A DNA stretch of 64,000 bases from contig JAJYUJ010000002.1 of NCBI GenBank assembly GCA_021792615.1, forward strand, positions 20,157 to 84,156. Reading direction: 5' to 3'. Position numbers and translations under genes: made by a program. Under the pieces are notes generated by a model, which saw only the letters and a program-made list of their open reading frames with translations, made no database searches and was not told the DNA's origin. Each line of letters opens with the position of its first letter. Positions within the stretch are counted from its first letter, which is position 1. Below, one piece after another: positions 4,701-57,326 of this stretch. Origin of the DNA: a bacterium. Lineage in GTDB: Bacteria; JAMCPX01.

Positions 4701-4720
4701 TGCAAATTTTAATTGTTCTC

Positions 4721-6607: not shown

Positions 6608-6617
6608 GTCTTCCTCC

Positions 6618-7061: not shown

Positions 7062-7088
7062 ATAGTAACCTCCTTTTATTTTTTATCT

Positions 7089-8324
7089 TTATTTATTTTT
7101 TGCGTCCATACCTATGCCTTCGGAAGCTGCATGGGTCTTAATTTCGACCTTGTGTTCCAGATGAGCATAGTAATCCTTCAGGATCTCGAGAACCTCTGGC
7201 CGGCTGAAATCTTCGGAAACAGGTTTACCTTCCGATAAAGATTTACGCAGCGCAGTTCCGCTGAGCAGAAGCCTGTCCTCCTTGCCGTGGGGACATGTTC
7301 TCATAGAAGCCATACCGCGGCACTTTGAGCAGTAGAATGTCCAGTCAATATTAAATGGCTTTAGTTCAAGTGCATCTTTTGGTATCTCGTTAAATATCTT
7401 CTGTGCATCAAACGGACCGTAATAGCTGCCGACGCCTGCGTGGTCTCTTCCGACTATCAAATGGGTACATCCGAAGTTCTGTCTGAATACACCATGCAGC
7501 AAGGCTTCACGAGGTCCTGCGTATCTCATCTCCATTGGGTATCCACCCATGACGACGGTGTTCTTAACAAAATATTTGTCCACAAGGACGTTTATGCATT
7601 TGGTCCTTACATCCGCAGGAATATCGCCTTCTTTCAGTTTCCCAACGAGCTGATGAATAAATACGCCGTCGACAACCTCGATCGCTATTTTTGCAAGATA
7701 TTCGTGCGATCGGTGCATCGGGTTTCTTAACTGCAATGCCGCTATGGTATGCCATCCCTTTTCTTCAAAGATTTTACGGCTTGCTGCAGGTCTCATATAG
7801 ATATCCCCGAACTGCTTTGGATAATAACTTTCGCTCAATACCTTTACCGGCCCGGCAAGATTAATATCCGCCTGTAACATTACCTTTTGAACACCGGGAT
7901 GTTCTGTATCGTTTGTTCTGAAAATCTCTTTACATTCGTAAGCCTTATCGATCGAGTACTTTTCCGTTATCTTCATGGTACCCATAATTTCCGAGGTTTC
8001 TTCATCTACAAGTGCAACCTCTATACCGTTTTTCATGCCATCTGCCACAGATTTTGCTGTTGAAAGGGTTATAGGAATAGGCCAGAACAGACCATTTTTC
8101 ATCTTATATTCTGAACATATACCTTTCCAATCATCATATCCCATAAATCCATCGAGGGGAGTGAATGCCCCGATCCCAAGCATGATCAGATCGGATGTTT
8201 CCCTGCTCGTCATTTTAACCTTTGGTAAGCCTTGAGCCTTCTTGAGCTCTTCCTCCCGTGCTTTTCCTTCCAGCAGAAGGGGCTTTAAAACCTTAGAACC
8301 ATGCGGCGAAATCAATTGTCCCAT
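7089..8324 (-). CDS. sat: Sulfate adenylyltransferase (ATP sulfurylase)
   Basis: [30 protein letters not shown], Zn site YCSKC..TCPH. Confidence 0.98.
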
Positions 8325-10398: not shown

Positions 10399-12972
10399 TT
10401 AATACAGTGTTGCGCCCGGTATATTTGAACCGGTCAGATCGTAGAACGCCTTCTGGAGTAATTCAACATCGAACTCCGTATTGTGAATACCCATACTGCC
10501 TTCATTCGCAACAACATTATAATTGTACACAGCATCCAGTTCTTGTTGAGTAAAGGTGTCCGTAAAACTGAATCCTGCAGTACCATTCGAAGGTGATAAG
10601 ACATTGGCGGTCCCTCTTGCTGTAGGTATATTAACCGTCCAAACCACAGGGTTACCGTTTATATCAACCGTATTTGCCGTGCAGGTGCCTGCAGATGTTG
10701 GAGTACTGGTTGTCGTAATAGCACATGCGATCACACTCAAGAGTCCCTGGACGCGGTCCTGCACTCCTTCCTGGCCCTCAATTGCTGTTGAACCGTCCCA
10801 GTCCGGGACAGAGGTTGCAAGTCTTGGCTCAACCCACGTATCAAAGCCGGTCACGATATTCCCATCACCTGTTCCTGTCGGTACCCCGACTATATGGCAC
10901 TGGGCACACGACTCTGTATCATCAACAAGCCCGTCAGACATGGCAAAGCTATGGTTGCCCGTCGTAACTGTAAAGTACGATGGATTGTACATATGACACG
11001 TCACGCACAGGTCTTTACCGTTCGTAGATGACAGGGCGCCTGTCGTATGCGGTGAACTCTGCACCGTAGCAGCATACGCACCCGCACCTACCAGGGTAAA
11101 TCCTTGTCCCGCTGCAAACACCTCGGCTGTTGTGTGATGTATATCAACTGCTGAAGCGGCTGCTGCTGCTGCTGACGTAGAGCCTGCCTGGCTCAAAGCC
11201 AAAGCGTTCTGAATAGCTGAATTGGGGTTTGACGTCTGGTCCGTATGACACATGGTACATATCGCACCCGCGCCAACGTTGGTGAGGGTAAAGCTGCCAC
11301 CTGCAACAGCCTCCGACCCATAAAGTCTGAGTTGATTTGGATTTGCAGCACTGTGCGGGTCATGACACGCAACACAGTTTACCGGGTATGGATTTGTTAC
11401 TATGGTAGGTGGCTGACCTTCAAAGTTTACTGCCACTATCTCTTGAGAAACGTGGCACTGAACACAGCCTAAATTCTTGGTCACAGATCCGCCTGCTGCT
11501 GTCAGGCTCTGTGCATGTACCGATGTCCTCCATTCATTTGGTATATCCTCGTCATCTGTATCATCGTGGCACTGGAAACACACGGACTGATCGTAGCTGA
11601 GTGTACCGGTATGAACGCTGCCCGGGCCATGACAATTTTCACACTGTATATTGCTCATGTTCTTCAGCGACTGCGGCATAGTGTTCCAATTGTTATAGTT
11701 TATTGCATAGCTGTCATTGTTTGCTACAAACGGGAATATCCATCCGGATGCCTCATAAGCACTCCACCACCCGTTACTTGAAACCGTTTGTTCCGGCGTA
11801 TCCCCCAGTGTATGGCAGCCGGCACAATGAAGTGTATAGTTATCATCATCCTGATAGTCGCCGTTAATCATTTTGGTAAACATGGTTGCATGCTTTGTTC
11901 CGAGCCATGGGCCAACCGTCAAAGGTGCATTTGCCACGTTGCCGTTATGGCACTGCGCACACTCCTGCCATCCCACGTAGGTTCCCGCATTCACGGTGAG
12001 TTCCTGACCCGACACAGCCTCGAGGAACACATACTGTCCCGCAATATCCGGTGTAAAACTGGGTGTTTGAGATGCCGGGTTTGTAAGGGCAGTTACATCC
12101 GAGCCGCCGGGTGCGGAAACAACCTGCCAGTTCCAGGTCGATTGTGTGCCCCCGTTTGTACCGCCGTCAAGGTACTGGGTAATACCTATGGGAACATTTT
12201 TTAAACCGCTGGTCATGGACGCAGGGGCTATATAAACTGTCGTCGTCGAGGTATTCGTACCATCGGAAACGGTGAGCTGAAATGCAAAGTCATTGCTATT
12301 GGCATAATTACCGGCCCCAAGCCAGGCCGAGATACCAAGCATACCAAACCTGTCCGGTATCTGGACCGGCACATCGAGTGATGAGAAAAATTGCTGTAAG
12401 GTCGGCAGTTGAACTTGCAATGTCGCGTTACTTGTACCGTTAAGAAATGTCACGGGCGCGGCTATAAATTGCCCTGCATAGTTTGGAACCTGTGTCCATG
12501 AATAGGTTAACGACTTCCCGGACGCGCTTGTACTTGCACTGCCGTCTATAGTAACGACAGCGCCGTATCCCACATCCCATTGATCTTTACCCGCATTGGC
12601 GATGATCGGTACAGACGGCGGAGCAGAAAGCTGGAATGGTATGTTCATGGTCTTACCCGCGACGATAGAAATATACCCCGTAGTTTGTGATATGAAACCG
12701 CCCATTGACGCTGTGATCTGATAGATACCGACCGGTACATTTTGAATTGTAAAATTGCCGTTTGTATCCGTTGTAGCGGAAAACAAGGCAGGTGAGACTG
12801 TTACCAGTGCGCCGGGTAACGGCTTTTTCGTTGCGGTATCAACAACACTTCCGCTTATGGTACCCGAGCTCAACCCTGCGGAGCCTGTCGAACCTTTACA
12901 ACCTGCCATTACAAGACTTACGAAAAGTCCTGCAATAAATAGACATATATATTGTTTAGAAACTATTTTCAT
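10399..12972 (-). CDS. Lipoprotein multiheme (9 CxxCH) cytochrome c with N-terminal carboxypeptidase-regulatory-like and PKD-like domains
   Basis: Lipobox MAGC; ANAGKDQ PKD-like start; CAQCH, CAGCH, CENCH, CFQCH, CVQCH, CVACH, CTMCH, CVTCH, CAQCH; C-terminal YNY..GSMGIHN..LL. Confidence 0.88.
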   Translation of the reverse strand: MKIVSKQYICLFIAGLFVSLVMAGCKGSTGSAGLSSGTISGSVVDTATKKPLPGALVTVSPALFSATTDTNGNFTIQNVPVGIYQITASMGGFISQTTGYISIVAGKTMNIPFQLSAPPSVPIIANAGKDQWDVGYGAVVTIDGSASTSASGKSLTYSWTQVPNYAGQFIAAPVTFLNGTSNATLQVQLPTLQQFFSSLDVPVQIPDRFGMLGISAWLGAGNYANSNDFAFQLTVSDGTNTSTTTVYIAPASMTSGLKNVPIGITQYLDGGTNGGTQSTWNWQVVSAPGGSDVTALTNPASQTPSFTPDIAGQYVFLEAVSGQELTVNAGTYVGWQECAQCHNGNVANAPLTVGPWLGTKHATMFTKMINGDYQDDDNYTLHCAGCHTLGDTPEQTVSSNGWWSAYEASGWIFPFVANNDSYAINYNNWNTMPQSLKNMSNIQCENCHGPGSVHTGTLSYDQSVCFQCHDDTDDEDIPNEWRTSVHAQSLTAAGGSVTKNLGCVQCHVSQEIVAVNFEGQPPTIVTNPYPVNCVACHDPHSAANPNQLRLYGSEAVAGGSFTLTNVGAGAICTMCHTDQTSNPNSAIQNALALSQAGSTSAAAAAASAVDIHHTTAEVFAAGQGFTLVGAGAYAATVQSSPHTTGALSSTNGKDLCVTCHMYNPSYFTVTTGNHSFAMSDGLVDDTESCAQCHIVGVPTGTGDGNIVTGFDTWVEPRLATSVPDWDGSTAIEGQEGVQDRVQGLLSVIACAITTTSTPTSAGTCTANTVDINGNPVVWTVNIPTARGTANVLSPSNGTAGFSFTDTFTQQELDAVYNYNVVANEGSMGIHNTEFDVELLQKAFYDLTGSNIPGATLY

Positions 12973-43855: not shown

Positions 43856-44815
43856 ATGCCGGAAAAAATAATAGAACATTGGGCACATAAAGCGGGCAGG
43901 CATTGCGCCTCTACGGCGCTTTCCGACCTTATGAACTTCTACGGCTACGACATGACGGAGCCCGAGTGTTTCGGCGCCGGCGAAGGCATTGGATTCTGGT
44001 ATATCGAAGGGCTGATCCCGCCGAGAATGATGCACTACAGGTCTGCGGATATAGAAAAGAAATTCTTCGAAAACATCGGCGTTGACTTCGCATGGTTCGA
44101 ACTGGACAGGGAAGAAGAAATAAAAGAGGCCCTCATAAAGAGCATAGACGATGCTATACCCGTATTGCTCAGGACCGATATCTTTTATCTCGACTATTAT
44201 AAAAGCAAAACGCATTTCCCGGGGCACTCCATAATTTTATGGGGGTACAACCTTGAGGACGATACCGCCTACATCTCGGACACGGAACGGAAAGGCCTCA
44301 CAAAATGCGGGTTCGGGTCCTTGATTGAAGGGATAATCCATGGAAACTTTCCCGAGGGGGAACATGCACATTTTATCCCCATAGCAAAACCTGTTTTTCA
44401 GCTGCATAAAAAGAAACTGTTTGCTAAGGCTGCGGCTTCCAATGCCGGTGTCATGCTGTCTCCCGGGGGTTTTGAAGGCTACGGGGTAAAGGGCATTCAG
44501 CTTGCCTCAAAAAAGGTTTTGGAATGGAAAGACCTTCCGGACTGGAAATGGCTTTCACGCTTCGCCTATCAGGTGATAGAGAAACGGGGGACAGGCGGCG
44601 GTGGATTCAGAAAAATGTATGCGGATTTCCTTGAAGGCTTTGCGGGCAAAAAAGCTGTAGCCATGATGAAGCAGATTGCAACCCGCTGGACCGATATATC
44701 CATTGTCTTCAAGGAGATAAGCGAATCCGATGTCCCTGATTTCAGTATTGTTTCGGATATGCTCTGGATACAGGCAATCAAGGAAGAAGAGTTTTATAAA
44801 AGCATCATTGACTGA
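43856..44815 (+). CDS. BtrH N-terminal / DUF4872 family papain-like protein
   Basis: GRHCAS, HFPGH, ISDT, EKRGTGGGGFRKMYADFL. Confidence 0.8.
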   Translation: MPEKIIEHWAHKAGRHCASTALSDLMNFYGYDMTEPECFGAGEGIGFWYIEGLIPPRMMHYRSADIEKKFFENIGVDFAWFELDREEEIKEALIKSIDDAIPVLLRTDIFYLDYYKSKTHFPGHSIILWGYNLEDDTAYISDTERKGLTKCGFGSLIEGIIHGNFPEGEHAHFIPIAKPVFQLHKKKLFAKAAASNAGVMLSPGGFEGYGVKGIQLASKKVLEWKDLPDWKWLSRFAYQVIEKRGTGGGGFRKMYADFLEGFAGKKAVAMMKQIATRWTDISIVFKEISESDVPDFSIVSDMLWIQAIKEEEFYKSIID

Positions 44816-44869
44816 TCCCGCACCGTATAAGGATAGGGATAAGCAAATTCCTTTCTTAGATTTTTCAGG

Positions 44870-44930
44870 TTAATCAGAAAAATGCGCACAAGGAAGTTTC
44901 CTTATTTTTCAATCGCATTTTTCGGGTTAA
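44870..44930. mobile_element. Minimal MITE-like element, same family as 22068-22375
   Basis: TTAATCAGAAAAATGCG...CGCATTTTTCGGGTTAA; shares ACAAGGAAGTTT.CTTATT and TTTCAA.CGCATTTTTCGGGTTAAG with the 22 kb copy. Confidence 0.65.
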
Positions 44931-45331
44931 GCAACAGCAAGGAGCTTATCGACCGTTTTTATGAGGAAGTCGCTTTTTACCGGTTTTTCAAGATAGGCCT
45001 CCGGTGCCCGAATTGCGACCCCCTTTAAAAATTTCTTGTAGCTGATATCGCTGTTTGTGTTTGTATCAATGCCCGTTATAATGACGATGGGAATGTCATT
45101 CCAGTTTTGCGATCCACGGATTTTTCTGAAAAGCTTTATGCCCGTTTCCCCGGGCAGTATAAGGTCGAGAGTTATGAGATCGGGTTTTTGTTTTACCAAT
45201 GCCCTTATCGCCTGCGCACTGGTACCGGCAATGACAGCGCTATAGCCGGATTCCTCAACCAGATATTTCAGGAAACCGGCGAAATCAAAGTCGTCTTCAA
45301 TTATTAAGATACTTTTTCTTTGTGTTTTCAT
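44927..45331 (-). CDS. Single-domain response regulator
   Basis: ILIIEDD, PDLITLDLILP, YLEKP. Confidence 0.9.
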   Translation of the reverse strand: MKTQRKSILIIEDDFDFAGFLKYLVEESGYSAVIAGTSAQAIRALVKQKPDLITLDLILPGETGIKLFRKIRGSQNWNDIPIVIITGIDTNTNSDISYKKFLKGVAIRAPEAYLEKPVKSDFLIKTVDKLLAVA

Positions 45332-45351
45332 CCGTACAGCCTTATCGCATT

Positions 45352-46599
45352 TTAAAAATTAACCGCCTGTTTTTTCCCTGCCATGGGCATTGATTCCGGT
45401 TCAGACTCCTCATGGGCATGTAATATTGCCATACGATTAACAATGAACCGGTAGGAAAGAACAAGCATGGTGATAACACCGAGGGTCAGCATAATCTCGG
45501 TCCACCTTGGATAGTATTTTTGTGAAGCCGGCAGGTACCAGTTAAATGCTACGATGGAAACATCCAGTCTGTTCAATACCACCCCGAGGACTGTCAACAA
45601 CCCGGCAAACCGGGTCAACTTTGCATTTTGCTGCCTGACTGCATAGAGGAATATCATGGCAGGAACAAGAACAAAACCCAGGACTTCCACAAGATATAAG
45701 TACCCGTACGATGTGTTCAAATAGACCCAATTCTCCGTGCGCACGAGGTCAAACACCTTCAAGAGAAAATATATGAAGAGTGCTGAGGATGCTGCTTTTC
45801 CAAGCCCGAGGGTAAGTTGATCGAATTCAGCATGATCAAAATCTTTTATCTGGTTTGCAAAAAACCTGTGTGACAGAGCGCTTTCGACGATAACCATGGA
45901 GATACCCGCAAAGATGGCCGAGAGCAGGAAGAAAATCGGGAGCAAAGGCGAGTACCATAGCGGATAGAGTTTCGCCCGTGCAGCAAGGTACAATGCACCC
46001 AGTGCCGATTGGTGCCCGGCAGCTATGATGACACCGAAGATGGTAGCCCAGACAGTCAATTTACTGAAAAAGTCCTTCCATTTTTTTAGATTGAGCCATT
46101 CAAAAAGCACCGGACTGAATTCAACAATGGATATGTTGATGTAGAGGAAGAAATGCCATCCTATCAAGAATAGGATCGAGGTGAACCCCCAGGACCATAC
46201 GAGGAGATAGGGAATACGGTAATACCGGCCGAGATCGAACATCAAGGCAATTACCGCAAAAATGTATCCGAGAAGACTCGAGAGTATAGCAGGGCGGACA
46301 AACGGGTGATACTTTTTCATCCCAAACAGATGGACTGCCGTGCCAAGGGTAAGCCCGGGAGCTGCCAGAGCAATACCCACGAGGATATCGAACCCTATCC
46401 ATAGCCCCCACGGGTAATTATCCGAAAGGTTTGTCGACGGCCCGAGCCCATAGATTATCCTATAGACCATAATTGGAACCGACACACAGAGGATGAGAGC
46501 GGCTATAAGGTTCGGCAGGGTAAGGTTGATCTTCAGGTATTCCTTCGGCGTCATCCCCAGCAGTATTTTATTTTTAAGCCATAAACTTGTATTTTCCAT
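45352..46599 (-). CDS. hmcC: HmcC, NrfD/HybB-family membrane subunit
   Basis: LGPSTNLSDNYPWGLWIGFD, DLGRY, HQSALG, LYPLWYSP, NRLDVS; multiple TM helices. Confidence 0.85.
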   Translation of the reverse strand: MENTSLWLKNKILLGMTPKEYLKINLTLPNLIAALILCVSVPIMVYRIIYGLGPSTNLSDNYPWGLWIGFDILVGIALAAPGLTLGTAVHLFGMKKYHPFVRPAILSSLLGYIFAVIALMFDLGRYYRIPYLLVWSWGFTSILFLIGWHFFLYINISIVEFSPVLFEWLNLKKWKDFFSKLTVWATIFGVIIAAGHQSALGALYLAARAKLYPLWYSPLLPIFFLLSAIFAGISMVIVESALSHRFFANQIKDFDHAEFDQLTLGLGKAASSALFIYFLLKVFDLVRTENWVYLNTSYGYLYLVEVLGFVLVPAMIFLYAVRQQNAKLTRFAGLLTVLGVVLNRLDVSIVAFNWYLPASQKYYPRWTEIMLTLGVITMLVLSYRFIVNRMAILHAHEESEPESMPMAGKKQAVNF

Positions 46600-46624
46600 A
46601 CGTAATCCTTCCTTTTGTTATAAT

Positions 46625-47644
46625 CTACGTTTTTTTCCCGGTGTCCGAAGGTCCTCCTGCGTGTTTGTCGTTTCTGTGTTCGCGAAGTTTCGATACTGCG
46701 TAATATGCTCCGAAAACAAGGGGCCAGGCGCTCACCATTTCGAATATCTTTACTCCTAACAGATACCCTTTCGTAAGATCGGGAACGGGTGTTGTACCGA
46801 CATCCGTCCGAAGGCCTATTTGATCGAAGTCTACCGGTGAAAGATAAAGCCAGCTTGTTCCTCCTGCCTCCTGCTCCCCGTAAATATGGTTTATGTATCT
46901 GCCGGGGTTGCTGTCGATCCTCCGGCGGGCTGTTTTGATCAATTCGCTCCTGCTGCCGAATATGAGAGCGCCGGCAGGACAGTTCTCCACACACGCAGGC
47001 ATCCGTCCATCCACGACCCTGTCGTAGCACATGGTACATTTGGTAATCTGCGGGTGAAAAGCTGAAAAGTATTCATACGCGGGAATGCCAAAGGGGCATG
47101 AGACCATACAATACCTGCATCCTATACACACATTGGGATTATAGATCACGGGTCCTTCGGGCGTTTTTCTGAAGGCGTCTACAAAACAGGCGTTGAGGCA
47201 TGCCGGATCAACGCAGTGCATGCATTGTTTCTTTACATAGACAGGATCACGATCTTTTTTCTCAAACCGGTTGACGACGGTGAAGTTGCCGGCATGGGTC
47301 CTTCTCACGTCATTGAAAACAGAGTTTTTTTCATTCACCGATGCTTCAAACTTTTCTACAGGCTGATTTGGGTTTTTATTCCAGTTGTTGCAAGCCCATT
47401 CGCACCTGCGGCACCCGATACAAAAAGTCGTGTCGACCAATATACCGTACGGTTCACCGTTCGGCTGTGATTGCTTTTTTCTCTTTTCCCATATCTTCCA
47501 GTCTCTTTCATTGGCCGTGTTGTCCGTAAAGAATTTTGAAAAATCTTTTTTATCTGCTGCGTGTGCAATACTGCTGCCGCCGAGCAAGGTAACACCGGCA
47601 ATCGCTGCAGTGCGTTTTAAGAACTCTCTTCTATCGATACCCAT
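46625..47644 (-). CDS. hmcB: HmcB, Tat-exported 4Fe-4S protein (HybA-like)
   Basis: DRREFLK Tat signal; CIGCRRC, CMHCVDPAC, CIGCRYC, KCTMC, IYGEQEAGGT; C-terminal TM. Confidence 0.87.
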   Translation of the reverse strand: MGIDRREFLKRTAAIAGVTLLGGSSIAHAADKKDFSKFFTDNTANERDWKIWEKRKKQSQPNGEPYGILVDTTFCIGCRRCEWACNNWNKNPNQPVEKFEASVNEKNSVFNDVRRTHAGNFTVVNRFEKKDRDPVYVKKQCMHCVDPACLNACFVDAFRKTPEGPVIYNPNVCIGCRYCMVSCPFGIPAYEYFSAFHPQITKCTMCYDRVVDGRMPACVENCPAGALIFGSRSELIKTARRRIDSNPGRYINHIYGEQEAGGTSWLYLSPVDFDQIGLRTDVGTTPVPDLTKGYLLGVKIFEMVSAWPLVFGAYYAVSKLREHRNDKHAGGPSDTGKKT

Positions 47645-47671
47645 ATTCTGCCTCCATCATTGCAAAGGTCG

Positions 47672-47791
47672 TTAATACTTTCTTCTCGGGGTACTCACAA
47701 AGTAATAGAACACTATGAATACAAACAGAGTCAGAATAGCTATGAGGTATTCATAACCTATCGGTGTAAACAATTGTTTTAAGATATACAT
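47672..47791 (-). CDS. Small single-TM protein, HmcD-like (39 aa), unannotated in ORF track
   Basis: AGGAG SD; MYILKQLFTPIGYEYLIAILTLFVFIVFYYFVSTPRRKY; fills the hmcA-hmcB gap. Confidence 0.72.
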   Translation of the reverse strand: MYILKQLFTPIGYEYLIAILTLFVFIVFYYFVSTPRRKY

Positions 47792-47801
47792 TTTTGTCTC
47801 C

Positions 47802-49541
47802 TTATTTCGCCTGATCGGTTTTCACAAACGCATGACAGTCCGCACAAGCCTTCGGTTTTTTGAGTTCCATTTTCGTGTGACACTGGATACACATTTCATG
47901 GTAAGCGGCAAGAAGACGCGGACGGTTTAAAGTCAACGGTTCGAAATACTTGCTATGACATTCGACGCAGGACGGCGGTTCATCTTTTATAATCTGTGCA
48001 TCACGGTATCCATGGTGGTGGCATGCTTCACACAGTGTTTGAATGTTCTCATGAAAATATGTTGCAAGTTTGCTGCTGTTGGAAACCCCGGCTAATTTTA
48101 TCAGTATCTTTTCATGAGGATATTTCACAGGTTTGAATTGGTTTGCAAGCTCCTTTATGGTAATTTCTTTCTTCACAATGTCCGGGTTAAGGCCGGCAGT
48201 AGTTAACGTGGCAGGCATTGCAACCTTGCTGAGGCCATTATGACAACGGGAACACATCCGATCAGAGGGTTCTTTTGCGACTACGGATGGACGGTGGCAT
48301 CCGGAGCAATCCTTTGCTGTTTCTTCTGCCTTATGGCATCCGATACAACTCTTATTGGAGAAGAGGTCATGATAGGCATCGAACACGTTGATTCCTTCGC
48401 CGTTAACACCGCCCTGCAGAGTATGGCATCGAGAGCAGTTGTATAAGGTTTCATGGTGGCAGGCCCTGCAACTGTCGATCTGCTGCGCATGGAATGCGTG
48501 ATCGAAGGGAACAGTCTTCATCTTTGCGTCCTTCACTGTTATCGAACACGTAGCCGGCTGGCCTGCCTGCGGACGCGGAACTTTTGCAAGTTCCGCCGGT
48601 GCCACGGACTTTCTTTCGTGACATTTATAACAGAGCGTAGGGCCGGCTTTACCAGCGCCCTCTGCTTTGGCTATAATCAGATGGCAGTTCAGACACCGTA
48701 TATGAGCGATCCTTTCCATGGTGAGTGCTTTTCTGGTCGTTACGCTCATGTCGGCCGCAAGAAGAGGGCTTCGCTGTGCACCAATAGTGTGGCAATCTTC
48801 GCACGCCCACGACCTGTCTGTCTCCCTGCCGCTTTTATAAACAACCGCGTAGATCATCTTCTTTTGCTCCGGGGAATACTGGTGATGACACAGCGCGCAA
48901 TTTTTCTCCCGGGCCTTTTGTTCTATGAGTTTCTTTTGGCTTTCCTTGAGATTATCCGGTTCGAATTTCACCACAACCGTGGATTCGAGATTAAGGGCTT
49001 GAAGTTCTTCGATCTGTTTCATCTGCAGTTTCTTTGTATGGGTCTCGTGGAGTTTAAAATCGAAGTTCACTCCGGGATACGTATATTTTGCTGCATCTGT
49101 GCCTTTTACATGACAGTTTCCGCACACCACGGGTCCTGCCTTTTTCCCTTGCTCCAACCTCTTTTCATGACAACCTATGCACGCCGTATGGTATGCATGC
49201 ATCAGGGCTTTGGGGGATGTTTGACTTATATCTTTAATACCCTGAGGAAAGATGAAATCTACGAGGTTATGATTTTTGCCATAAAAAGGATGGCAGGCAT
49301 CGCAACCCTTGCCTTCTTTTCCCAAAACCTGCGTATGCTTGTCGTGGTCAAATATTACTGCGGGGTATTCCAATGTTTCAAATACCTTTGTATTTGCAAT
49401 AACAATCTTATCGTCATACGTTGTCTTCACCAGTTTTTCTGCGGGAACACGCTGGACCCCGGAATGAACGACGCCGGACATTCCTGCAATAATCGTAATC
49501 AGTAATCCCGGAATTGCTATGATACTGAACCTTTTTTTCAT
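47802..49541 (-). CDS. hmcA: HmcA hexadecaheme cytochrome c
   Basis: 16 CxxCH motifs counted, cytochrome c3-type FDHxxH, AYH..C..CH, GPxxC..CH modules; N-terminal signal/TM. Confidence 0.9.
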   Translation of the reverse strand: MKKRFSIIAIPGLLITIIAGMSGVVHSGVQRVPAEKLVKTTYDDKIVIANTKVFETLEYPAVIFDHDKHTQVLGKEGKGCDACHPFYGKNHNLVDFIFPQGIKDISQTSPKALMHAYHTACIGCHEKRLEQGKKAGPVVCGNCHVKGTDAAKYTYPGVNFDFKLHETHTKKLQMKQIEELQALNLESTVVVKFEPDNLKESQKKLIEQKAREKNCALCHHQYSPEQKKMIYAVVYKSGRETDRSWACEDCHTIGAQRSPLLAADMSVTTRKALTMERIAHIRCLNCHLIIAKAEGAGKAGPTLCYKCHERKSVAPAELAKVPRPQAGQPATCSITVKDAKMKTVPFDHAFHAQQIDSCRACHHETLYNCSRCHTLQGGVNGEGINVFDAYHDLFSNKSCIGCHKAEETAKDCSGCHRPSVVAKEPSDRMCSRCHNGLSKVAMPATLTTAGLNPDIVKKEITIKELANQFKPVKYPHEKILIKLAGVSNSSKLATYFHENIQTLCEACHHHGYRDAQIIKDEPPSCVECHSKYFEPLTLNRPRLLAAYHEMCIQCHTKMELKKPKACADCHAFVKTDQAK

Positions 49542-49556
49542 CGCGCTTCCTCCGAC

Positions 49557-50903
49557 CTACTTCTTGGCCTTCATGCTCTCTGGCACCTCTATTGCATCAA
49601 CAAGTATATCGCTGATAAATTTCGTATGCATGCCAAGCTTGTAATATCCAATTATGTCCTCTATGCCGCTGTGGCAGTTATGGCATGGCGTAATAACGAC
49701 ACGTGCGCCCGTTGCCTTCATTTGTTCCGCCTTGACACGGTTTCCCTCCATGCGTTTGAGCTTCCAGGGGGGACCGCAGTTGATGACACCTCCGCCTGCT
49801 GCACAGCAATAATTGTGCTCTTTGTTTGGCGACATATCCCTGAAATCTTCACAGATCGCATTCACAACATACCGCGCCATGTCACCAAGTCCCCTCCCCC
49901 GCATTACATTGCACGGGTCATGCAGGGTTACGGGCTCTTTGAATTTCTTAACGATCTTTATCCTTCCTTCTTTGATAAGCTCATAATAAAACTGGATCGC
50001 ATGTATGACCGGCACCGGAGGCATCTTCCAGCCGAACCACCGGTTCCCGACATCGTAGACGGATCTGAATGCATGGCCACATTCGCCCATGACGATCCTT
50101 TTGACCTTCAGCCGCATGGCAGCTTCAAAATGCGCCCTCTTTACCCTTCCCATTATCTCCTGATCCCCGGAAAACATGGCCATATCGCTGTTGTCCCAGC
50201 CGTCGAAAGAAGGGAACGTCCAGTCAATACCGGCAACGTTCATGATCTTGGCAGCATTTCCGATAAGCATGGCGAGGAACTTCGGCTCCGGACCGATGAC
50301 AGAATACATGATATCGGCGCCTTCCTTATCCAAAGGAATCGTAAGATTTTTTATCTCTCTTCTGTAATCGTCCTCCTGCCAGAATAAGGTATCGATCCAT
50401 TCGTCCTGCTTGAGCCACATCTGGTTCATGGTAGCAGCGTGACTGTGTGCGGTATCCTGCAGGTATTGGGGTGTTACACCGAGCAGATGGCATATACGCC
50501 GTACGGAACTTATTATGTAGGCAATATCGATTCCAAAGGGACAGTACATACTGCATCTGCGGCACAGGTTGCACTCGGTGTATGCTATTTCTGCAATTTT
50601 TTTGACGGAATCGGGACTTACACGGCCTTTGTTCTTCAGTATCTCCCACATGGTCTGCTTGACCTTACCGACCGGAGAGAAATGCGGATCACCGTCATGC
50701 GACAGATAAAAATGGCACGCCTCCGAGCATAGTCCGCAGTGGATACAGGTCGAGACATAAGCATCCAAACGTGCACCGCCCATAGCAGCCAGTGCATTGT
50801 TTATCGTTATTTCTATTTTTTCCGGGGTCAGTTTTTTTGCACCTTCTTCTAAGCCAAGATCGATTATTTTTTTCACTTCTTTCTTTTCAGCCGCTACTGC
50901 CAT
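49557..50903 (-). CDS. tmcB: TmcB (HmcF/DsrK/HdrD-like CCG Fe-S protein)
   Basis: CIHCGLCSEAC, CNLCRRCSMYC, QDTAHSH..MNQMW, GECGH, LHDPC, CCAAGGG, PCHNC; start ATG 50903 with GGAGGT SD. Confidence 0.85.
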   Translation of the reverse strand: MAVAAEKKEVKKIIDLGLEEGAKKLTPEKIEITINNALAAMGGARLDAYVSTCIHCGLCSEACHFYLSHDGDPHFSPVGKVKQTMWEILKNKGRVSPDSVKKIAEIAYTECNLCRRCSMYCPFGIDIAYIISSVRRICHLLGVTPQYLQDTAHSHAATMNQMWLKQDEWIDTLFWQEDDYRREIKNLTIPLDKEGADIMYSVIGPEPKFLAMLIGNAAKIMNVAGIDWTFPSFDGWDNSDMAMFSGDQEIMGRVKRAHFEAAMRLKVKRIVMGECGHAFRSVYDVGNRWFGWKMPPVPVIHAIQFYYELIKEGRIKIVKKFKEPVTLHDPCNVMRGRGLGDMARYVVNAICEDFRDMSPNKEHNYCCAAGGGVINCGPPWKLKRMEGNRVKAEQMKATGARVVITPCHNCHSGIEDIIGYYKLGMHTKFISDILVDAIEVPESMKAKK

Positions 50904-50947
50904 TCCATACCTCCATCGTGAACTTGATTCGTCGTACCGCGCATGTT

Positions 50948-51622
50948 TTACCAGTCCCTGGCATGACGCACCATGCCAAACTCCGAACCTGTGTAAGCCC
51001 TTGTGAATACGGAGAACAACATGTGTGCCAGCCTGGTAAAGGGGATCGCAATCAACATAAGTTCTCCGCACAGGATATGAAGCACTATTAATGCTTTATA
51101 CGGGAGAAACAGTTGGTGGTACGCTAAAAATCCTGTGAAAAACGGTAAAAATACAATTGCGAGGATAAAAAAGTCTGAAGGATAGGTAACGAACCTGACC
51201 TCTCTTGCAACAAACCTTCTCAGGAGAAAGAACACACAGGAAAGCATTACGATGAGCGTCATAAGGTCGGCAAGCCCCTCCGGCAGGGTCCACAATCTTA
51301 TGTGCCATGATTGAAACAACAGGATGTTATGTGCCAACAAGAATACCGGCGTTATGATGAGACAAAAGTGAAAAAGAAAGGTTACGGTCGTCATGACAGG
51401 GTGTCTTCTCCAATTAACCGTGCCAAAAGGTGTGGCCCAATGGGCAATGGATCTCAGACCGTATTTAAAACTCATGTACGGCAGAACGACTGCTTCCTTT
51501 TTCAGACCGGAGATTATTTTGTATATCCTGTATGTGCTGCCTGATATGAATACCAGAAAAGCGAGCCATACCATCGGACCTCTCACAAACTCATAGAAAC
51601 CTTCGCTCATAAGGAATTTCAT
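50948..51622 (-). CDS. tmcC: TmcC (NarI/DsrM-like cytochrome b)
   Basis: GPMVW, RSIAHW..PF, FH..AH, LHILCGE..IPFTRLAHM. Confidence 0.83.
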   Translation of the reverse strand: MKFLMSEGFYEFVRGPMVWLAFLVFISGSTYRIYKIISGLKKEAVVLPYMSFKYGLRSIAHWATPFGTVNWRRHPVMTTVTFLFHFCLIITPVFLLAHNILLFQSWHIRLWTLPEGLADLMTLIVMLSCVFFLLRRFVAREVRFVTYPSDFFILAIVFLPFFTGFLAYHQLFLPYKALIVLHILCGELMLIAIPFTRLAHMLFSVFTRAYTGSEFGMVRHARDW

Positions 51623-51641
51623 AGCTTTGTATTCTCCATTT

Positions 51642-53039
51642 TTAAATTTCGTCTAAAGGAACAACATACCGGTAATACTTGCCACCCCCTATGCAACGGA
51701 CGAGAATCTTATCTCCACGGGGGCTGAATACCGGGGACCAGAGTGCGTCAAACATTTTTTTACCTGCCTTGCCGTTTACAGCGACACAGTATTTCCCGTT
51801 GATTTCCGCCTTTGCCGCTACCGTACTTCCGTCCGGGCTAAAAACCGGGTCCCATATCATATCGAAATCCTGATTCCACGGGATACCGTCAACAACGATT
51901 GTCCACCGGTCGTTTCCTTCGATGCTGTGAAGTGACGAGCCCATATTCATAGGATCCTTCGATTCCTTTGCTATTGCCGCCACCCGTTTACCGTCCGGAG
52001 AAAATACGGGGTCTAAAACCGTATCGCTGAATGTTTGCTTCCATGCACTGCCGTCAACAGCTATCGTCCACCTGCCGAATTCAGATGCCACTACAGCCGC
52101 TATCTTTTGACCGTCAGAACTGAATTTCGGGGGCCATACCTGAATAAAGGGTCCCCAAATCGGCTTTCCATCGAGGGCGAGTGTCCAGCCCTTGGCGATC
52201 TTAACCGGAGCGATAACATTGTTTTTTGCCGTAAAACAGGGCTCGCACACACACTTATAGGTTTGCGGCCACATGTTCCCGTCTACGACGACTGCGTAGT
52301 CATACAGGTTTATTCTTGTTTCTGCAGCAACGTGCCTGCCGTCGGGACTGAAGGCGAGGCCCCAGACATTGACAAAGTTTTTATCCCACGGGACCCCGTT
52401 CACAGCGACGGTCCAGACACCCTTCTGAAAATTAAATATGTCGGCCTCTGCAAGCCTTTTTACGGCAACCGATGCTGCTGCCTTTGTCCCATCGGAGCTG
52501 ATGAAAAGGTTTCTTACATCGGCAAAGCCCTGTACCCATGGTTTATCCCCCAGACAAACACCGTATTGATCATCTTTCTTTATGTTGATACCAATGGATC
52601 TGCCATTTGGTGCTATCTGTAAATTCCACGCATAGTCGAACTTTTCATTCCAGGGGATCCCGTCGAGAGCAACGGTCCAGGCATTATCTTTGAGTACAAG
52701 ACATGCTGCCTTACCTTCATTGGTGAATTTAAACGACCATATTTTTTCGTACGTTTCTTCCCATGGATTTCCATTTATGCAGACGGTAAAAGTCTCATCA
52801 TCGTTCTGAACCACAGCTCCTATTTTTTCCCCGTCTTCGCTTACGTTGAAGGGACGCACCTCGGCATATCTGCTTTTCCATTCGTCGGTATTGGCGATCA
52901 TCTTTTCTTTCGTATCCCAATCCATTCTGGACTCCGCATCCTTTCCGCGGTCCAGCGGAGTTGCCGTATGTAATGGGGACGGGATACCCTGTTTTGAGAT
53001 CGGTTGGACTTTTTCTTCTGATTTTTGCGTTGCTTCCAT
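51642..53039 (-). CDS. tmcD: TmcD, Trp-rich beta-propeller subunit
   Basis: Repeated FSPDG and WTxxxDG.PW motifs; directly upstream of tmcC/tmcB. Confidence 0.8.
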   Translation of the reverse strand: MEATQKSEEKVQPISKQGIPSPLHTATPLDRGKDAESRMDWDTKEKMIANTDEWKSRYAEVRPFNVSEDGEKIGAVVQNDDETFTVCINGNPWEETYEKIWSFKFTNEGKAACLVLKDNAWTVALDGIPWNEKFDYAWNLQIAPNGRSIGINIKKDDQYGVCLGDKPWVQGFADVRNLFISSDGTKAAASVAVKRLAEADIFNFQKGVWTVAVNGVPWDKNFVNVWGLAFSPDGRHVAAETRINLYDYAVVVDGNMWPQTYKCVCEPCFTAKNNVIAPVKIAKGWTLALDGKPIWGPFIQVWPPKFSSDGQKIAAVVASEFGRWTIAVDGSAWKQTFSDTVLDPVFSPDGKRVAAIAKESKDPMNMGSSLHSIEGNDRWTIVVDGIPWNQDFDMIWDPVFSPDGSTVAAKAEINGKYCVAVNGKAGKKMFDALWSPVFSPRGDKILVRCIGGGKYYRYVVPLDEI

Positions 53040-54179
53040 TTAATGCCTCCTGTAAGGTATAGAGATCGAGAAGACGGTGCCTTTCGGTGAAGATTCAAAT
53101 GTAATCATGCCGCCGTGGCCGGCTATGATCTTTTCCGTTGTAAGCAATCCGAGTCCTGTTCCCCTGTCATTCTTCGTCGTAAAATAACCTTTAAAAATTT
53201 TATCTTTGTTTTTCCGGGAGATCCCGCATCCATTATCTTTTACAGAAACGAGACACCCGATTCCCCTATAATCACTGCTTTTAATCGTAATGCCATGATA
53301 AGACTTTCTTCGCTTATCCATTCTGCAAGCGTCTATTGCATTATCTGCAAGATTTAAAACAGCATGATAAAGACCATTGCTGTTTCCGTGTATCGTCTTT
53401 ATATCTTTACCGAACACTCTGCTGAATTTTATATGCTCCCTGGCCAGTTTTTCTTTTATCGCAACGGCAACGTCCTCTAAAATCCGGTTCATTTCGACAG
53501 GCTCCGGTATTGAAGGCACGTCTTTTGCATAGTCGAGTAAACGGAGAACCGTATCTGACAGTTTTGTTATGTTCCCCTGGATCATGGACCAGCCCTTGCT
53601 AATTTTTTCCTGTTCTCCACGCATAAGCCCGTTGTTGACTAAATATGTTCCTGCATCCATCAGGGAAACGACGTTTTTTATACTATGAGCGATACCGGAT
53701 AGTGTCTGACCGAGGACCGCGAGTTTCTCGGCATGTTTGAGCCTGGTTATGTCGGTAGCTATCTCTATAACGTGCGAAACATGGCTATGATCACCAAATA
53801 CCGGGAATGATTGAACGAGAATATGGCGGGTTTCTCCATTCAGAAGGATTGGCTCTTCGCGCATGTGTGGTTTGCCGTCATGAAAAGACCTCTCGAGGCA
53901 GCAATCATTACATTTTGCATTTCTATGTTTATAGAGTTCATAACAATGCCTGCCTGCTGTTGTGCCGAAATCCTCGATCACCCTTTCATTGGCCTGTATT
54001 ATATAAAAAGCCCTGTCCTGCATTGTTATGTAACACGGGACAGTATTATAAATGGATTTATAAATGTTAAACTGATTTATGAATGATACCATGCTTTCCC
54101 GGTAAGCCTTTGCAGAAGCAACTACTTTTCCAGAATCAAGCGTCGTTCTATCGATAGTTTTCAATGAAGAGGTTCTCAT
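53040..54179 (-). CDS. Cytoplasmic PAS sensor histidine kinase
   Basis: Cys-rich PAS CYELYKHRNAKCNDCC; AHSIKN H-box; NAIDA, DNGCG, GTGLGL; no TM. Confidence 0.9.
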   Translation of the reverse strand: MRTSSLKTIDRTTLDSGKVVASAKAYRESMVSFINQFNIYKSIYNTVPCYITMQDRAFYIIQANERVIEDFGTTAGRHCYELYKHRNAKCNDCCLERSFHDGKPHMREEPILLNGETRHILVQSFPVFGDHSHVSHVIEIATDITRLKHAEKLAVLGQTLSGIAHSIKNVVSLMDAGTYLVNNGLMRGEQEKISKGWSMIQGNITKLSDTVLRLLDYAKDVPSIPEPVEMNRILEDVAVAIKEKLAREHIKFSRVFGKDIKTIHGNSNGLYHAVLNLADNAIDACRMDKRRKSYHGITIKSSDYRGIGCLVSVKDNGCGISRKNKDKIFKGYFTTKNDRGTGLGLLTTEKIIAGHGGMITFESSPKGTVFSISIPYRRH

Positions 54180-54646
54180 ATCGCCTTTGCCCTTAAGCTT
54201 GAAGTACTTCTTTTTTTAGACGCCAGAATTTTGCGGATAACAGAAATAAGCCTTAACGATTCAACCGGTTTTTCAAAATAACCATCAGGTGGCATTAATG
54301 CCTTGGAATATAAAGCCTTTTTAAAATCTATCCCTGGATGGGTGTTATTGGTATAACTGGTTATTATTATTACGGGAATTGAACAATATTTACTGTTTTT
54401 TCGTATTTCCGTAAAAAATTTTATGCCGGTTTTATTCGGCATTATAAGATCAAGGGTTATAAGGTCAGGCACGATGGATTTCATCAGTTGAAAACCAGCC
54501 ATACCGTCGGATGCAAGCACAGTACAGAATCCAGCCTCTTCCAAAATGATTTTCAGGTAGTAAGAGAATTCAGGATCATCCTCTACAATCAGAATTCTTG
54601 GGATTATTCCGCCATGCTCATAGTTATCTGATACTTTTTTTTCCAT
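54176..54646 (-). CDS. Single-domain response regulator (likely start ATG 54646)
   Basis: ILIVEDD, PDLITLDLIMP, YFEKP. Confidence 0.88.
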   Translation of the reverse strand: MEKKVSDNYEHGGIIPRILIVEDDPEFSYYLKIILEEAGFCTVLASDGMAGFQLMKSIVPDLITLDLIMPNKTGIKFFTEIRKNSKYCSIPVIIITSYTNNTHPGIDFKKALYSKALMPPDGYFEKPVESLRLISVIRKILASKKRSTSSLRAKAI

Positions 54647-54657
54647 AAATCTCTTCG

Positions 54658-54774
54658 CTGGTCTGACCAATAATACAGAGCCATAAATATTCTATATAAC
54701 TGGTCTGACCAGTGATAAAATTATATGGTTCCTGATTCGGTGTCAAGTTATTTTGTGTACAATGTACAATATAC
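54658..54774 (-). promoter_or_regulatory. Promoter of the tmc/hmc cluster with two operator types
   Basis: TTGACA 54746-54741 with TAATTT/TATAAT -10 near 54718-54725; TGGTCTGACCA at 54659-54669 and 54701-54711; TGTGTA-CAA-TGTACA at 54754-54768. Confidence 0.75.
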
Positions 54775-54985
54775 CAATGAGGGCATTATCAAAAATGCAT
54801 AGGGCTGGTACCATCCCTATCCCGGTTTTCGTAAAATACTACCTTCGACAAGCCCCCCCTGCTGAGGTGACATCATTTCTGTGCGGTGAACTGATTCTCC
54901 ATGAGAGGGGGTGAGGGGGAAAATTGTAACAGGTATTGCTTTTTTATAAAAATTCTTATAGAGTGAAAGCTACTGGAGGATACAG

Positions 54986-55990
54986 ATGAAAATTAAGAAT
55001 GTATTATCCCTTATTGCTTTTTTGATTTTTGGTTTAACGGTTTCGAACGGGTGTACTCCTGTCAAACAAACAACTACAGACGCGCCTTCCCTGCACTTTG
55101 ATCAAGTAAGTTATAATTTTGGAAAAATCCCTAAGGGAAAAAAAGTTTCACATAATTTTACGTTTACCAATACCGGTAATGAGAAGCTTGTCATAACCAA
55201 GGTACAACCAACCTGCGGGTGTACGGTGGCGGTTACCTCATCAAAGGAATTGTTGCCGGGAGCAAAGGGCGTAATCAAGATTACATTCGATTCTCAGGGC
55301 TACCTTGGACCTATTACCAAGACCATTACGGTTATGGATAACGACCCTGCAAAACCATCGGTATTGCTGTCTATCAGCGGCGACGTAGTCACAGACGTTA
55401 TGCTCTCTAAACCAGCCCTGTTTTTCGGCTCTATTAAGAAGGGGCAGGGAGCACAGCAATCTGTAGATATTTTCATCTCCAATCCTTCTGTGCACATAAT
55501 GTCCGTCGTCTCGACAAATCCTTATATAAAAGTATCAACCGTCAGCCAGTTTATGTCCCAGGAAACTATCAATGTGTCCGTTCTTCCGGATGCCGGGTAT
55601 GGTCCGCTCAACGCCGATATTCTTATTCTTTCTTCGAGCAAAGAACAACCTGCGCTCCACATACCGGTTATAGGTAACATTGTCGGCGATATTCTTCTGA
55701 ACCCCGATGTGGTAGATTTTGGCGTTGTTAAGGCACACGCCGAACAAAGTATACTGCCTGTTTACCTTTATACTCAGCCGCCGCGCGAATTCTCTTTAAC
55801 AAAGGTAACGGTAAAACCCGATATTGTCCATGTAAAGGTCATGAAACAAAACCAGGGAAGCTATAAGTTAGAATTGCTGTTAAAACCGGTAAAAAGTATG
55901 GGTGGTATTCATGGCACCATAACCGTCCTGACAACAATGAAAAAAATGCCTGTTGTCGTTATTCCGTTTCAAGGAACTATCGAGCCCTAA
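54986..55990 (+). CDS. DUF1573 Ig-like domain lipoprotein
   Basis: Signal ending NGC; YNFGKI..FTFTNTG..L.I..V.PTCGCT. Confidence 0.85.
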   Translation: MKIKNVLSLIAFLIFGLTVSNGCTPVKQTTTDAPSLHFDQVSYNFGKIPKGKKVSHNFTFTNTGNEKLVITKVQPTCGCTVAVTSSKELLPGAKGVIKITFDSQGYLGPITKTITVMDNDPAKPSVLLSISGDVVTDVMLSKPALFFGSIKKGQGAQQSVDIFISNPSVHIMSVVSTNPYIKVSTVSQFMSQETINVSVLPDAGYGPLNADILILSSSKEQPALHIPVIGNIVGDILLNPDVVDFGVVKAHAEQSILPVYLYTQPPREFSLTKVTVKPDIVHVKVMKQNQGSYKLELLLKPVKSMGGIHGTITVLTTMKKMPVVVIPFQGTIEP

Positions 55991-56047: not shown

Positions 56048-56722
56048 ATGGGACTAAGACAAATTGATCTTCAAAAGAAACAAACGCTAAGGGAACAAAT
56101 AGCGGATGCCATACGGGACGCTATCATAAAGGGTATTCTCCAGCCCGAAGAACGTGTGGCAGAAGCAGAAATGGCCAACAAGTTCAACATCAGCAGGACG
56201 CCTATCAGAGAGGCAATACGGCAGCTTGAGACAGAAGGGTTCATAAAGGTACAGGCTCACCGGGGTGCTTATGTCGCTCCGATCACAGAAAAGGACATAC
56301 GGGATTTTTACGAGATCAAAAGCATCCTTGAAGGATATGCCGCAAAGCTTGCGTGCAGCAGGATGAACGAAGACGACATAAAAAAAATGGAAGAACTCAA
56401 CAACAAGCTCGAAGATGCGCATAAAAAAGGTGAATGGCGGCTCGCGTTCAAGCTGCACAATGATTTCCACGATAAATTCCTGCGCAACTGCGGCAACGAG
56501 AAACTGTATCAATTGCTCCAGTCGCTGACCCAGCAATTCCAGAGATTCAGAATAGCCCTGACGATGAGCGGCAAGATTGAAGGTTCTATAAGCCAGCACC
56601 GGGAGATAGTAAATGCATTCCGCAAACGCAATGCAGACCTTGTAGAAAAGCTCGTCAAAGAGAACGCAACCTATGGGAGTGAAACACTTGTCTCAGAAAT
56701 TCTGAGACATGGACAGGTGTAG
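56048..56722 (+). CDS. GntR-family (FadR subfamily, FCD domain) transcriptional regulator
   Basis: wHTH ISRTPIREAIRQL; FCD motifs NDFH, GN..L, QHREI. Confidence 0.93.
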   Translation: MGLRQIDLQKKQTLREQIADAIRDAIIKGILQPEERVAEAEMANKFNISRTPIREAIRQLETEGFIKVQAHRGAYVAPITEKDIRDFYEIKSILEGYAAKLACSRMNEDDIKKMEELNNKLEDAHKKGEWRLAFKLHNDFHDKFLRNCGNEKLYQLLQSLTQQFQRFRIALTMSGKIEGSISQHREIVNAFRKRNADLVEKLVKENATYGSETLVSEILRHGQV

Positions 56723-56723
56723 C

Positions 56724-57326
56724 ATGGGCGTTTTGTCCACAGAGGTTTTAGTTCTCAATAAATCATACCTTCCGGTACATGTAACGACGGTAAAAAGAGC
56801 GTTTACCCTTCTCTACGAAGGCATTGCCAAGGTTGTGGATAAACAGTTTACCATTTATGACTTCAAAAACTGGGCGGAATTAAAAGCAGAATACGATGAC
56901 GATGTTATCGGTATTGTGCAACGAGTGATCAAGGTACCGAGGGTGATCGTGCTTGTTGCTTATGACCGCATACCGAAGAAGCACGTACGGTTCTCAAGGC
57001 TCAACATATTTTCCCGGGACAAAAACACCTGTCAGTATTGCGGAGAATCATTTTCAAGGACGGAGCTTAATATCGACCACATCATACCGCGCTCGGTCGG
57101 GGGTTTAAGCACATGGGACAACGTTGTCTGCAGTTGTTTTGAATGCAATAAAAAGAAAGGCGGGCGTACGCCTGAACAGGCAGGTATGAAATTAATCAGA
57201 AAGCCACGAAAACCCGAATGGACACCCTATGCGGCATTTAATTTCAAACATATCCTTTACGAAGAATGGGCGCCATTTTTGAATATCGTGGATGCGTCAT
57301 ACTGGAATGTCGAGCTCGAAAAGTAA
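56724..57326 (+). CDS. HNH endonuclease (McrA-like stand-alone family)
   Basis: VLVLNKSY; RDKNTCQYCG, IDHIIPRSVGG, WDNVVCSC..CNKKK. Confidence 0.9.
   Translation: MGVLSTEVLVLNKSYLPVHVTTVKRAFTLLYEGIAKVVDKQFTIYDFKNWAELKAEYDDDVIGIVQRVIKVPRVIVLVAYDRIPKKHVRFSRLNIFSRDKNTCQYCGESFSRTELNIDHIIPRSVGGLSTWDNVVCSCFECNKKKGGRTPEQAGMKLIRKPRKPEWTPYAAFNFKHILYEEWAPFLNIVDASYWNVELEK

Follow-up and report, generated by a model that had tools for sequence, protein, structure and literature searches.

Of the transmembrane redox complexes of sulfate reducers, HmcABCDEF of Desulfovibrio vulgaris was reportedly described by Rossi et al. in 1993. In the textbook view, Hmc and Tmc are separate complexes, with Tmc a "simplified Hmc". 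TmcABCD of Desulfovibrio vulgaris Hildenborough was described by Pereira et al. 2006, as cited in the available text of PMC5109826 and PMC10861901; according to the accessible part of PMC4215793, Tmc relays periplasmic electrons in the direction of DsrC, and it and Nhc are each called a simplified Hmc. A cysteine within a GECGH motif was proposed by Barbosa et al. to be catalytic in DsrK, HmcF and TmcB (PMC10861901, in its available text). In the portion of PMC5165239 at hand, the genes THER_1440-1444 of Thermodesulfovibrio sp. N1 are presented as an "Hmc complex" whose members are an NrfD protein, a ferredoxin of the periplasm, a cytochrome with 16 haems and a CCG ferredoxin, and all four other Thermodesulfovibrio genomes are said to carry an Hmc complex. 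Here we analysed a gene cluster on a 64,000-nt stretch of contig JAJYUJ010000002.1 (GCA_021792615.1), termed the window, to which all unprefixed coordinates refer. The data reveal a third, intermediate architecture in which TmcDCB is joined to HmcA-D-B-C. We consider it likely that the cluster forms a single operon encoding a long-form Tmc, meaning a complex of Hmc type with a Tmc-type inner half, which belongs to an old and widespread family and would serve as an electron conduit linking periplasmic multihaem cytochromes and/or the menaquinone pool with a cytoplasmic thiol/disulfide, most likely DsrC.

Ten open reading frames (ORFs) of the same direction were found to occupy positions 44927-54670 on the minus strand, with intergenic gaps of -4 to 44 nt. 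In the order of transcription, these encode a response regulator (RR1), a PAS-histidine kinase, TmcD, TmcC, TmcB, a 16-haem HmcA, a 39-aa peptide (p39), an HmcB-like protein, an HmcC-like protein and a second response regulator (RR2), with the gaps inside the seven-gene core from tmcD to hmcC at 10-44 nt. All genes named in the initial annotation of this tight, co-directional cluster are thus present; its title omitted the two response regulators and the kinase, which its span also covers. Family calls were made by comparing NCBIfam model bit scores with the family cut-off, and domains were assigned by Pfam. Four of the core proteins passed the cut-off of their family: TmcD (51642-53039; NF045725, 510 bits, cut-off 440), the NarI/DsrM-like membrane subunit TmcC (50948-51622; NF045723, 308 bits, cut-off 240), the cytoplasmic HdrD/DsrK-like iron-sulfur protein TmcB (49557-50903; NF045724, 790 bits, cut-off 735) and the HmcA-type periplasmic cytochrome c (47802-49541; NF045713, 425 bits, cut-off 400). 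The start of TmcB at 50903 agrees with the 443-460 aa lengths of its homologues. Downstream of the cytochrome gene are p39, a peptide with a single transmembrane segment (47672-47791, between hmcA and hmcB), the HmcB-like periplasmic four-cluster ferredoxin (46625-47644), whose best family was NF045715 at 360 bits with the cut-off of 420 not reached, and the HmcC-like NrfD-family membrane protein (45352-46599), whose best family was NF045714 at 446 bits with the cut-off of 550 not reached.

The inner pair of the cluster was examined for its relationship to the paralogous subunits of Tmc and Hmc. The TmcB protein scored 367 bits on the HmcF model (cut-off 750) and 211 bits on the DsrK model (cut-off 400), and the TmcC protein scored 196 bits on the HmcE model, under its cut-off of 275. 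When 46 proteins in all were scored with the TmcB and HmcF models, each of the 35 B proteins encoded upstream of a 16/17-haem gene had a higher score with TmcB (497-774 bits) than with HmcF (340-398 bits), and seven B proteins of canonical hmc loci gave 875-937 bits with HmcF and 345-375 bits with TmcB. A 50-row tree separated the HmcF rows from the TmcB-like rows with 100/100 support. Judged by these sequence comparisons, the membrane/cytoplasmic pair is of Tmc type and not HmcE/F, as had been claimed, and the phylogeny that had been proposed as a check places the pair with Tmc. The claimed lack of a tetrahaem tmcA and of separate hmcE/hmcF genes also held when the search was widened to the window's genome (2.54 Mb, 99.55% complete): no tetrahaem TmcA scored above the cut-off in this genome, with both model matches falling within the 16-haem gene, and no copy of HmcE or HmcF was detected elsewhere in it, with the HmcF model picking up nothing beyond TmcB, DsrK and a pair of weakly matching CCG proteins. 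It is scarcely credible, then, that the locus is an ordinary Hmc in permuted order whose upstream genes are simply HmcE and HmcF. This explanation could draw on the annotation of Thermodesulfovibrio sp. N1 (available text of PMC5165239), and on the existence of one locus, L087, which truly has HmcE and HmcF upstream of hmcA; however, a tmcD gene is present in the window and canonical hmc loci are without one, and the explanation is refuted both by the scores of the window's own pair (TmcB 790 vs HmcF 367; TmcC 308 vs HmcE 196) and by the 100/100 split in the tree. The L087 locus itself (L087:3-5775, a metagenome-assembled genome [MAG] of Desulfobacterales) was found to have its HmcE-HmcF genes (HmcF model, 937 bits) ahead of hmcA-B-C-D, giving the permuted order E-F-A-B-C-D with canonical subunits, and to adjoin a classical tmcDCBA operon.

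A separate feature was observed among TmcB-like genes of relatives, 13 of which have an in-frame TGA codon at the cysteine of a (T/G)ECGH motif that corresponds to Cys275 of the window protein. The carriers are L014:6271-7629, L144, L149, L150, L152, L156, L157:1881-3215, L159, L200, L201, L204, L205 and L029:16793-18052; in L156 the PCHNCH cysteine, too, is replaced by TGA, and the TmcB of the window itself has Cys. These codons probably specify selenocysteine, and their position at the GECGH cysteine fits a redox-active residue.

The small peptide was also compared with the Hmc subunits. Its MYIxEQLF...EY motif and transmembrane helix were conserved in 20 loci. When 6610 small ORFs were searched with a profile built from 37 long-form peptides, it matched the small transmembrane ORF that follows hmcC in 11 of 13 canonical loci (E <= 0.013), and the other two gave E 0.16-0.19; the canonical small ORF is named HmcD by position only. 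Because the long-form profile finds the small ORF after canonical hmcC, p39 is, by profile similarity, an HmcD homologue of variable position, which bears out its earlier designation as hmcD.

We next consider how common this gene layout is. Among the 79 loci closest to the TmcB of the window, 64 had tmcD-C-B followed by a 4-haem gene in the classical order; the remaining loci included three with a 16-haem gene, eight without a cytochrome and four that ended too early. Two samples were then searched by HmcA. The first was the Nitrospirota class of L014 (a Nitrospirota MAG), in which 31 of 201 genomes had HmcA; 20 regions were examined from 19 of these 31, and all 19 regions that had upstream DNA displayed the order D-C-B-16haem-(p39)-hB-hC. 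The second was the Desulfobacterota/Thermodesulfobacteriota phylum of L087, in which HmcA was over the cut-off in 41 of 401 genomes; 40 regions were examined from 38 genomes, with G477, G044 (= L087) and G043 (= L025) left out. Of these 40, the window layout was found in 23 (two cut by contig ends), the canonical hmcA-B-C-(D)-E-F in 12, and another arrangement in five. The intermediate form is therefore more frequent than canonical Hmc among the sampled genomes and is carried across the HmcA loci of a Nitrospirota class. The layout is common among sulfate reducers and already in print under the name Hmc. The initial annotation had presented the cluster as an unusual chimera, a view that gives way to the regularity of this order (19/19 and 23/40 regions, and the published N1 genes). 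A full-text search of the literature, with Pereira 2011 outside its coverage, returned no description of TmcBCD joined to HmcA-D, nor of the Tmc-type nature of such loci.

Trees of TmcB were used to relate the long form to classical Tmc. In both a 112-row tree and the 50-row tree, the rows linked to a 16/17-haem gene formed several deep clades, and the 4-haem rows all fell in one nested clade together with some cytochrome-less rows (99* in the 112-row tree, 100/99 in the 50-row tree). The window, the second copy of L014, L206 and L015 joined this 4-haem clade at 100/100. In an enlarged tree, with more classical TmcB added and L257 and 10 duplicate rows left out, the clade of the window and classical TmcB stayed at 100/100. 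When TmcA-like tetrahaem proteins were aligned to the window cytochrome, 69 of 69 aligned best to its residues 1-160, which fits a truncation of the cytochrome. From these comparisons, classical 4-haem TmcABCD looks like a reduced descendant of the long form; moreover, since the HmcF outgroup sits in a complex with a 16-haem cytochrome and HmcBC, the 4-haem Tmc would by parsimony be derived under either rooting.

The two halves of the cluster were found to differ in their evolutionary relationships. Between L206 and L204, the hA/p39/hB/hC proteins are 85/95/86/89% identical, and D/C/B only 54/58/46%. The L014 locus (L014:4289-15370) has two complete tmcD-C-B sets in tandem before a single 16-haem-p39-hB-hC: the first set is near L144 (77/83/85%), as are the hA/p39/hB/hC genes of L014 (71/71/77/86%), and the second is near the window (B 77%). 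This tandem has the look of a module replacement caught midway. The hmcC of the window groups with long-form loci (60-70% identity), including those of L014/L144 type, apart from canonical hmcC; the 13 canonical hmcC lie on one side of a branch, with the HmcC lineage of the window separate. Taken together at the level of sequence, the DCB and A-D-B-C halves have discordant histories and module exchange is real; the DCB of the window is of the type nearest classical Tmc and was probably set before hmcA by such an exchange. A different origin, by recent fusion of a classical tmcDCBA with a canonical hmcABCDEF and subsequent loss of tmcA and hmcEF, was the strong form of the original proposal and now appears very improbable. 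Tandem arrangements of tmcDCBA and then hmcA and its followers do occur in L073, L188 and L198 and in Desulfococcus multivorans (PMC5109826), and the 100/100 clade that holds the window TmcB also holds classical TmcB. Nonetheless, a recent fusion is difficult to reconcile with (i) the placement of the window hmcC with the long-form loci and not with the 13 canonical ones, (ii) the low identity of the window to canonical loci (hA 29-32%, hB 42-51%, hC 44-50%), and (iii) the widespread and deep-branching occurrence of the layout. The earlier suggestion of an "ancestral or recombined" arrangement is thus partly borne out as to recombination, at the finer level of the two discordant halves, and falls as to a one-off chimera.

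The features of the individual proteins allow a working model of the long-form Tmc to be proposed. If DsrMKJOP and HmcABCDEF are taken as guides, one transmembrane conduit would be formed by the seven products. Its outer and quinone-facing module would consist of the 16-haem HmcA, the Tat-exported HmcB, the NrfD-type HmcC and the small HmcD. Exactly 16 CXXCH motifs were counted in the cytochrome, together with a signal-like N-terminal hydrophobic segment (residues 7-25). The HmcB-like protein has a twin-arginine signal (Tat model match), four Cys motifs and a hydrophobic C-terminal stretch, in which a simple hydropathy scan called no transmembrane helix; the HmcC-like protein (Pfam NrfD, 71 bits) has about ten hydrophobic segments and presumably a quinone site. 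The inner module would comprise TmcC as a dihaem b subunit, TmcB as a DsrK/HdrD-like subunit with Cys275 as its putative catalytic residue, and TmcD as a beta-propeller. TmcC has hydrophobic segments, and its His 85, 98, 182 and 200 are invariant across 32 homologues, which would fit two haems b. In TmcB, two CxxCxxCxxxC motifs (53, 111) are accompanied by a CCG domain and by the GECGH motif with Cys275. TmcD is cytoplasmic and tryptophan-rich (21 W in 465 residues), without a cofactor motif, and a sequence scan found no transmembrane segment in it; its AlphaFold model (predicted local distance difference test 90.7) is composed of all-beta repeats, as in a repeat beta-propeller, and a fold search with it returned only generic propellers (template modelling scores 0.2-0.4). 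In the proposed path, HmcA would exchange electrons with periplasmic cytochromes, HmcB and HmcC would link to menaquinone, TmcC would carry electrons through the membrane to TmcB, and TmcB would reduce a disulfide or a trisulfide, with DsrC as its most likely bearer. Both the binding of DsrC and the assembly as a single complex are inferred from homologous systems. A complex prediction for HmcC (26-row alignment) with TmcC (32-row alignment) had a score of 0.00, which gives no verdict either way.

The strongest competitor to a single conduit is that two complexes are encoded on one transcript and coupled only via the quinone pool: a cytochrome-less TmcBCD acting as a menaquinol:DsrC-type reductase like DsrMK, and an Nhc-like HmcA-D-B-C acting as a cytochrome:menaquinone oxidoreductase. 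We regard this as unlikely. The separate evolutionary histories of the modules would suit it, as would the instances where a module is unlinked or alone: in genome G443 (locus L207) hmcA-D-B-C is unlinked from the TmcB-like gene, three genomes (G533, G447 and G353) have the 16/17-haem-hB-hC genes and no TmcB-like gene at E <= 1e-60, and DCB occurs without a cytochrome in eight of the 79 loci nearest in TmcB. Nhc, which is without E/F, is moreover a known stand-alone form in the available text of PMC4215793. Against two complexes stand the strict adjacency and shared direction of the modules in 19/19 and 23/40 regions, the gaps of only 10-44 nt in the window, the treatment of homologous DsrMKJOP subunit sets as single complexes (in the accessible parts of PMC5109826 and PMC10861901), and the correspondence of the classical cytochrome TmcA to the N-terminal domain of the long-form HmcA.

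The unlinked, solitary and cytochrome-less modules also count against our preferred reading of the cluster as one operon for an old, long-form Tmc, and several other results weigh against it as well. The HmcB-like and HmcC-like proteins score under their NCBIfam cut-offs. Inside the clade of the window and classical TmcB, the enlarged tree collapses into a polytomy whose branches are the window, L014, L206, L015 and two clades of 4-haem/cytochrome-less rows. In an approximately unbiased (AU) test, holding all 27 long-form rows together was not rejected (p-AU 0.129, 10.4 log-likelihood units worse), with the long-form group named after viewing the tree; the root of the TmcB tree is insecure. 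The usual electron donors are missing from the genome. A search for RNA runs found none listed, and three metatranscriptome runs of the same study were nearly empty of the query words. The grade topology of the TmcB tree had also been considered as proof that the long form is ancestral, and was dropped because the AU test did not reject long-form monophyly; the case now rests on parsimony with the HmcF outgroup.

In regard to electron donors, the genome was searched with family models and none of NiFe hydrogenase, FeFe hydrogenase, FdhA-type formate dehydrogenase or Qrc was found over the cut-off; no c3 was detected in the genome outside HmcA, with two small tetrahaem ORFs not being class III c3. 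With neither hydrogenases, FdhA nor free c3 encoded, the role of periplasmic partner to the complex must fall to other multihaem cytochromes or to the quinone pool. ORFs with two or more CXXCH motifs number 21 in the genome (maximum 17), and contig C45 bears the genome's own dsrAB, dsrC and a complete dsrMKJOP. A fuller scenario, which we offer as possible and rather doubtful, is that in this acid-mine-drainage sulfate reducer the long form wires a network of periplasmic or extracellular multihaem cytochromes and the menaquinone pool to DsrC, so that sulfite reduction would be coupled to the cytochrome-mediated uptake of electrons or to their discharge to iron; in this scenario the long form would be ancestral, classical Tmc would have arisen when the cytochrome was cut back to its first domain, and DCB would be an exchangeable cassette.

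The core is flanked by regulatory genes. RR1 (54176-54670) is a single-domain response regulator (Pfam Response_reg, 62 bits), whose top NCBIfam family was DVU0259 at 80 bits, with the cut-off of 160 not reached; it has an alternative ATG start at 54646 and overlaps the kinase gene by 4 nt. The PAS-histidine kinase (53040-54179; Pfam PAS_9 and HATPase_c) is cytoplasmic, and its stop abuts the tmcD start (gap 0 nt). RR2 (44927-45331), 20 nt after hmcC, is likewise a single-domain response regulator (Pfam Response_reg, 61 bits). A promoter and terminator scan of 44300-55300 was uninformative, with counts below those of shuffled sequence (12 vs 18.3 and 8 vs 10.6). Among the 13 species genomes of the phylum in our collection, an HmcA-type gene was found in four of the five other genomes of the genus and in none of the seven outside it, and dsrA in 10 of 13; in this small phylum the cluster as a whole is restricted to a single genus. 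Among the members of that genus the seven core genes do not vary, and the regulators do: G005 matches the window, with both RR1 and RR2 present, G002 is without RR1 and the kinase, and G001 is without RR2. Identity of the 16-haem cytochrome in these three genomes is 68-77%, much below that of the partner subunits (TmcB 91-94%, TmcC 86-88%, HmcB 85-88%, HmcC 76-88%).

Other genes of the window and of the assembly were also recorded. A row of sat, aprB, aprA and two HdrA-like (QmoA/B-type) genes spans 1167-8324 on the minus strand, which places sulfate-activation genes on one contig with the Tmc/Hmc operon, 37 kb away. An 857-aa ORF with nine CXXCH motifs (10399-12972, minus strand), a large multihaem cytochrome as yet unassigned, matched only one family, and that weakly, in the haem region of a UshA-like (seleno)protein model. 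Four clustered multihaem cytochrome ORFs (11, 7, 9 and 17 CXXCH) on G000 contig C32:43872-51708 may represent an extracellular electron-transfer locus. On G000 contig C5:1749-4368, a small tetrahaem cytochrome that is not class III c3 and a gene for a QrcC/DsrO-like ferredoxin are separated by about 2 kb, and the pair may be another small cytochrome-ferredoxin membrane module. A 205-aa ORF (56709-57326, plus strand), which shares an overlap with the end of a GntR-family gene, shows 93% conservation in G002 and weakly matches (57 bits) the IscB and Cas9d models in their HNH region.

Overall, the window represents one more member of a widespread Tmc-Hmc intermediate that is under-described rather than unique. 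For annotation, this means that the "Hmc" calls of many genomes conceal Tmc-type inner subunits; for evolution, the intermediate gives a concrete form to the simplification story, with modules exchanged along the way. For experiment, cultured carriers offer a way to ask if electrons from a 16-haem cytochrome reach a DsrC reductase of DsrK type.

Compared with the known systems, the locus resembles TmcABCD in that its TmcB, TmcC and TmcD score above the equivalog cut-offs, in the order D-C-B-cytochrome, in its flanking regulators and in the GECGH cysteine; it differs in that the acidic tetrahaem type II c3 TmcA is replaced by a 16-haem cytochrome with a TmcA-like N-terminal domain, and that it continues with HmcD-, HmcB- and HmcC-like genes absent from classical Tmc. 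With HmcABCDEF it shares the 16-haem HmcA, an HmcB-like Tat iron-sulfur protein, an HmcC-like protein of NrfD type and the small HmcD, as well as the joining of a cytochrome module to a b-cytochrome and a CCG protein; unlike Hmc, it has the paralogous TmcC/B in place of HmcE/F and TmcD in addition, its order is D-C-B-A-D-B-C rather than A-B-C-D-E-F, and its HmcB/C-like proteins are under the equivalog cut-offs. The Thermodesulfovibrio sp. N1 genes form a similar run of a CCG ferredoxin, a 16-haem cytochrome, one undescribed gene, a periplasmic ferredoxin and an NrfD protein, and complete genomes of the sampled Nitrospirota class carry the full D-C-B-16h-p39-hB-hC; the available text of the N1 report differs from our description in making no mention of TmcD- or TmcC-like genes or of a Tmc-type nature (PMC5165239). 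Counterparts can likewise be drawn to DsrMKJOP (TmcC/DsrM, TmcB/DsrK, HmcA/DsrJ, HmcB/DsrO and HmcC/DsrP, with the DsrK-type cysteine motif common to both), whereas 16 haems are present here vs three, TmcD and HmcD are extra, and the genuine dsrMKJOP is separate on contig C45. Finally, Nhc of D. desulfuricans ATCC 27774 has, in the accessible part of PMC4215793, the same type of cytochrome-HmcB-HmcC module without HmcE/F; its cytochrome has nine haems, whereas that of the window has 16 and is directly preceded by TmcDCB.

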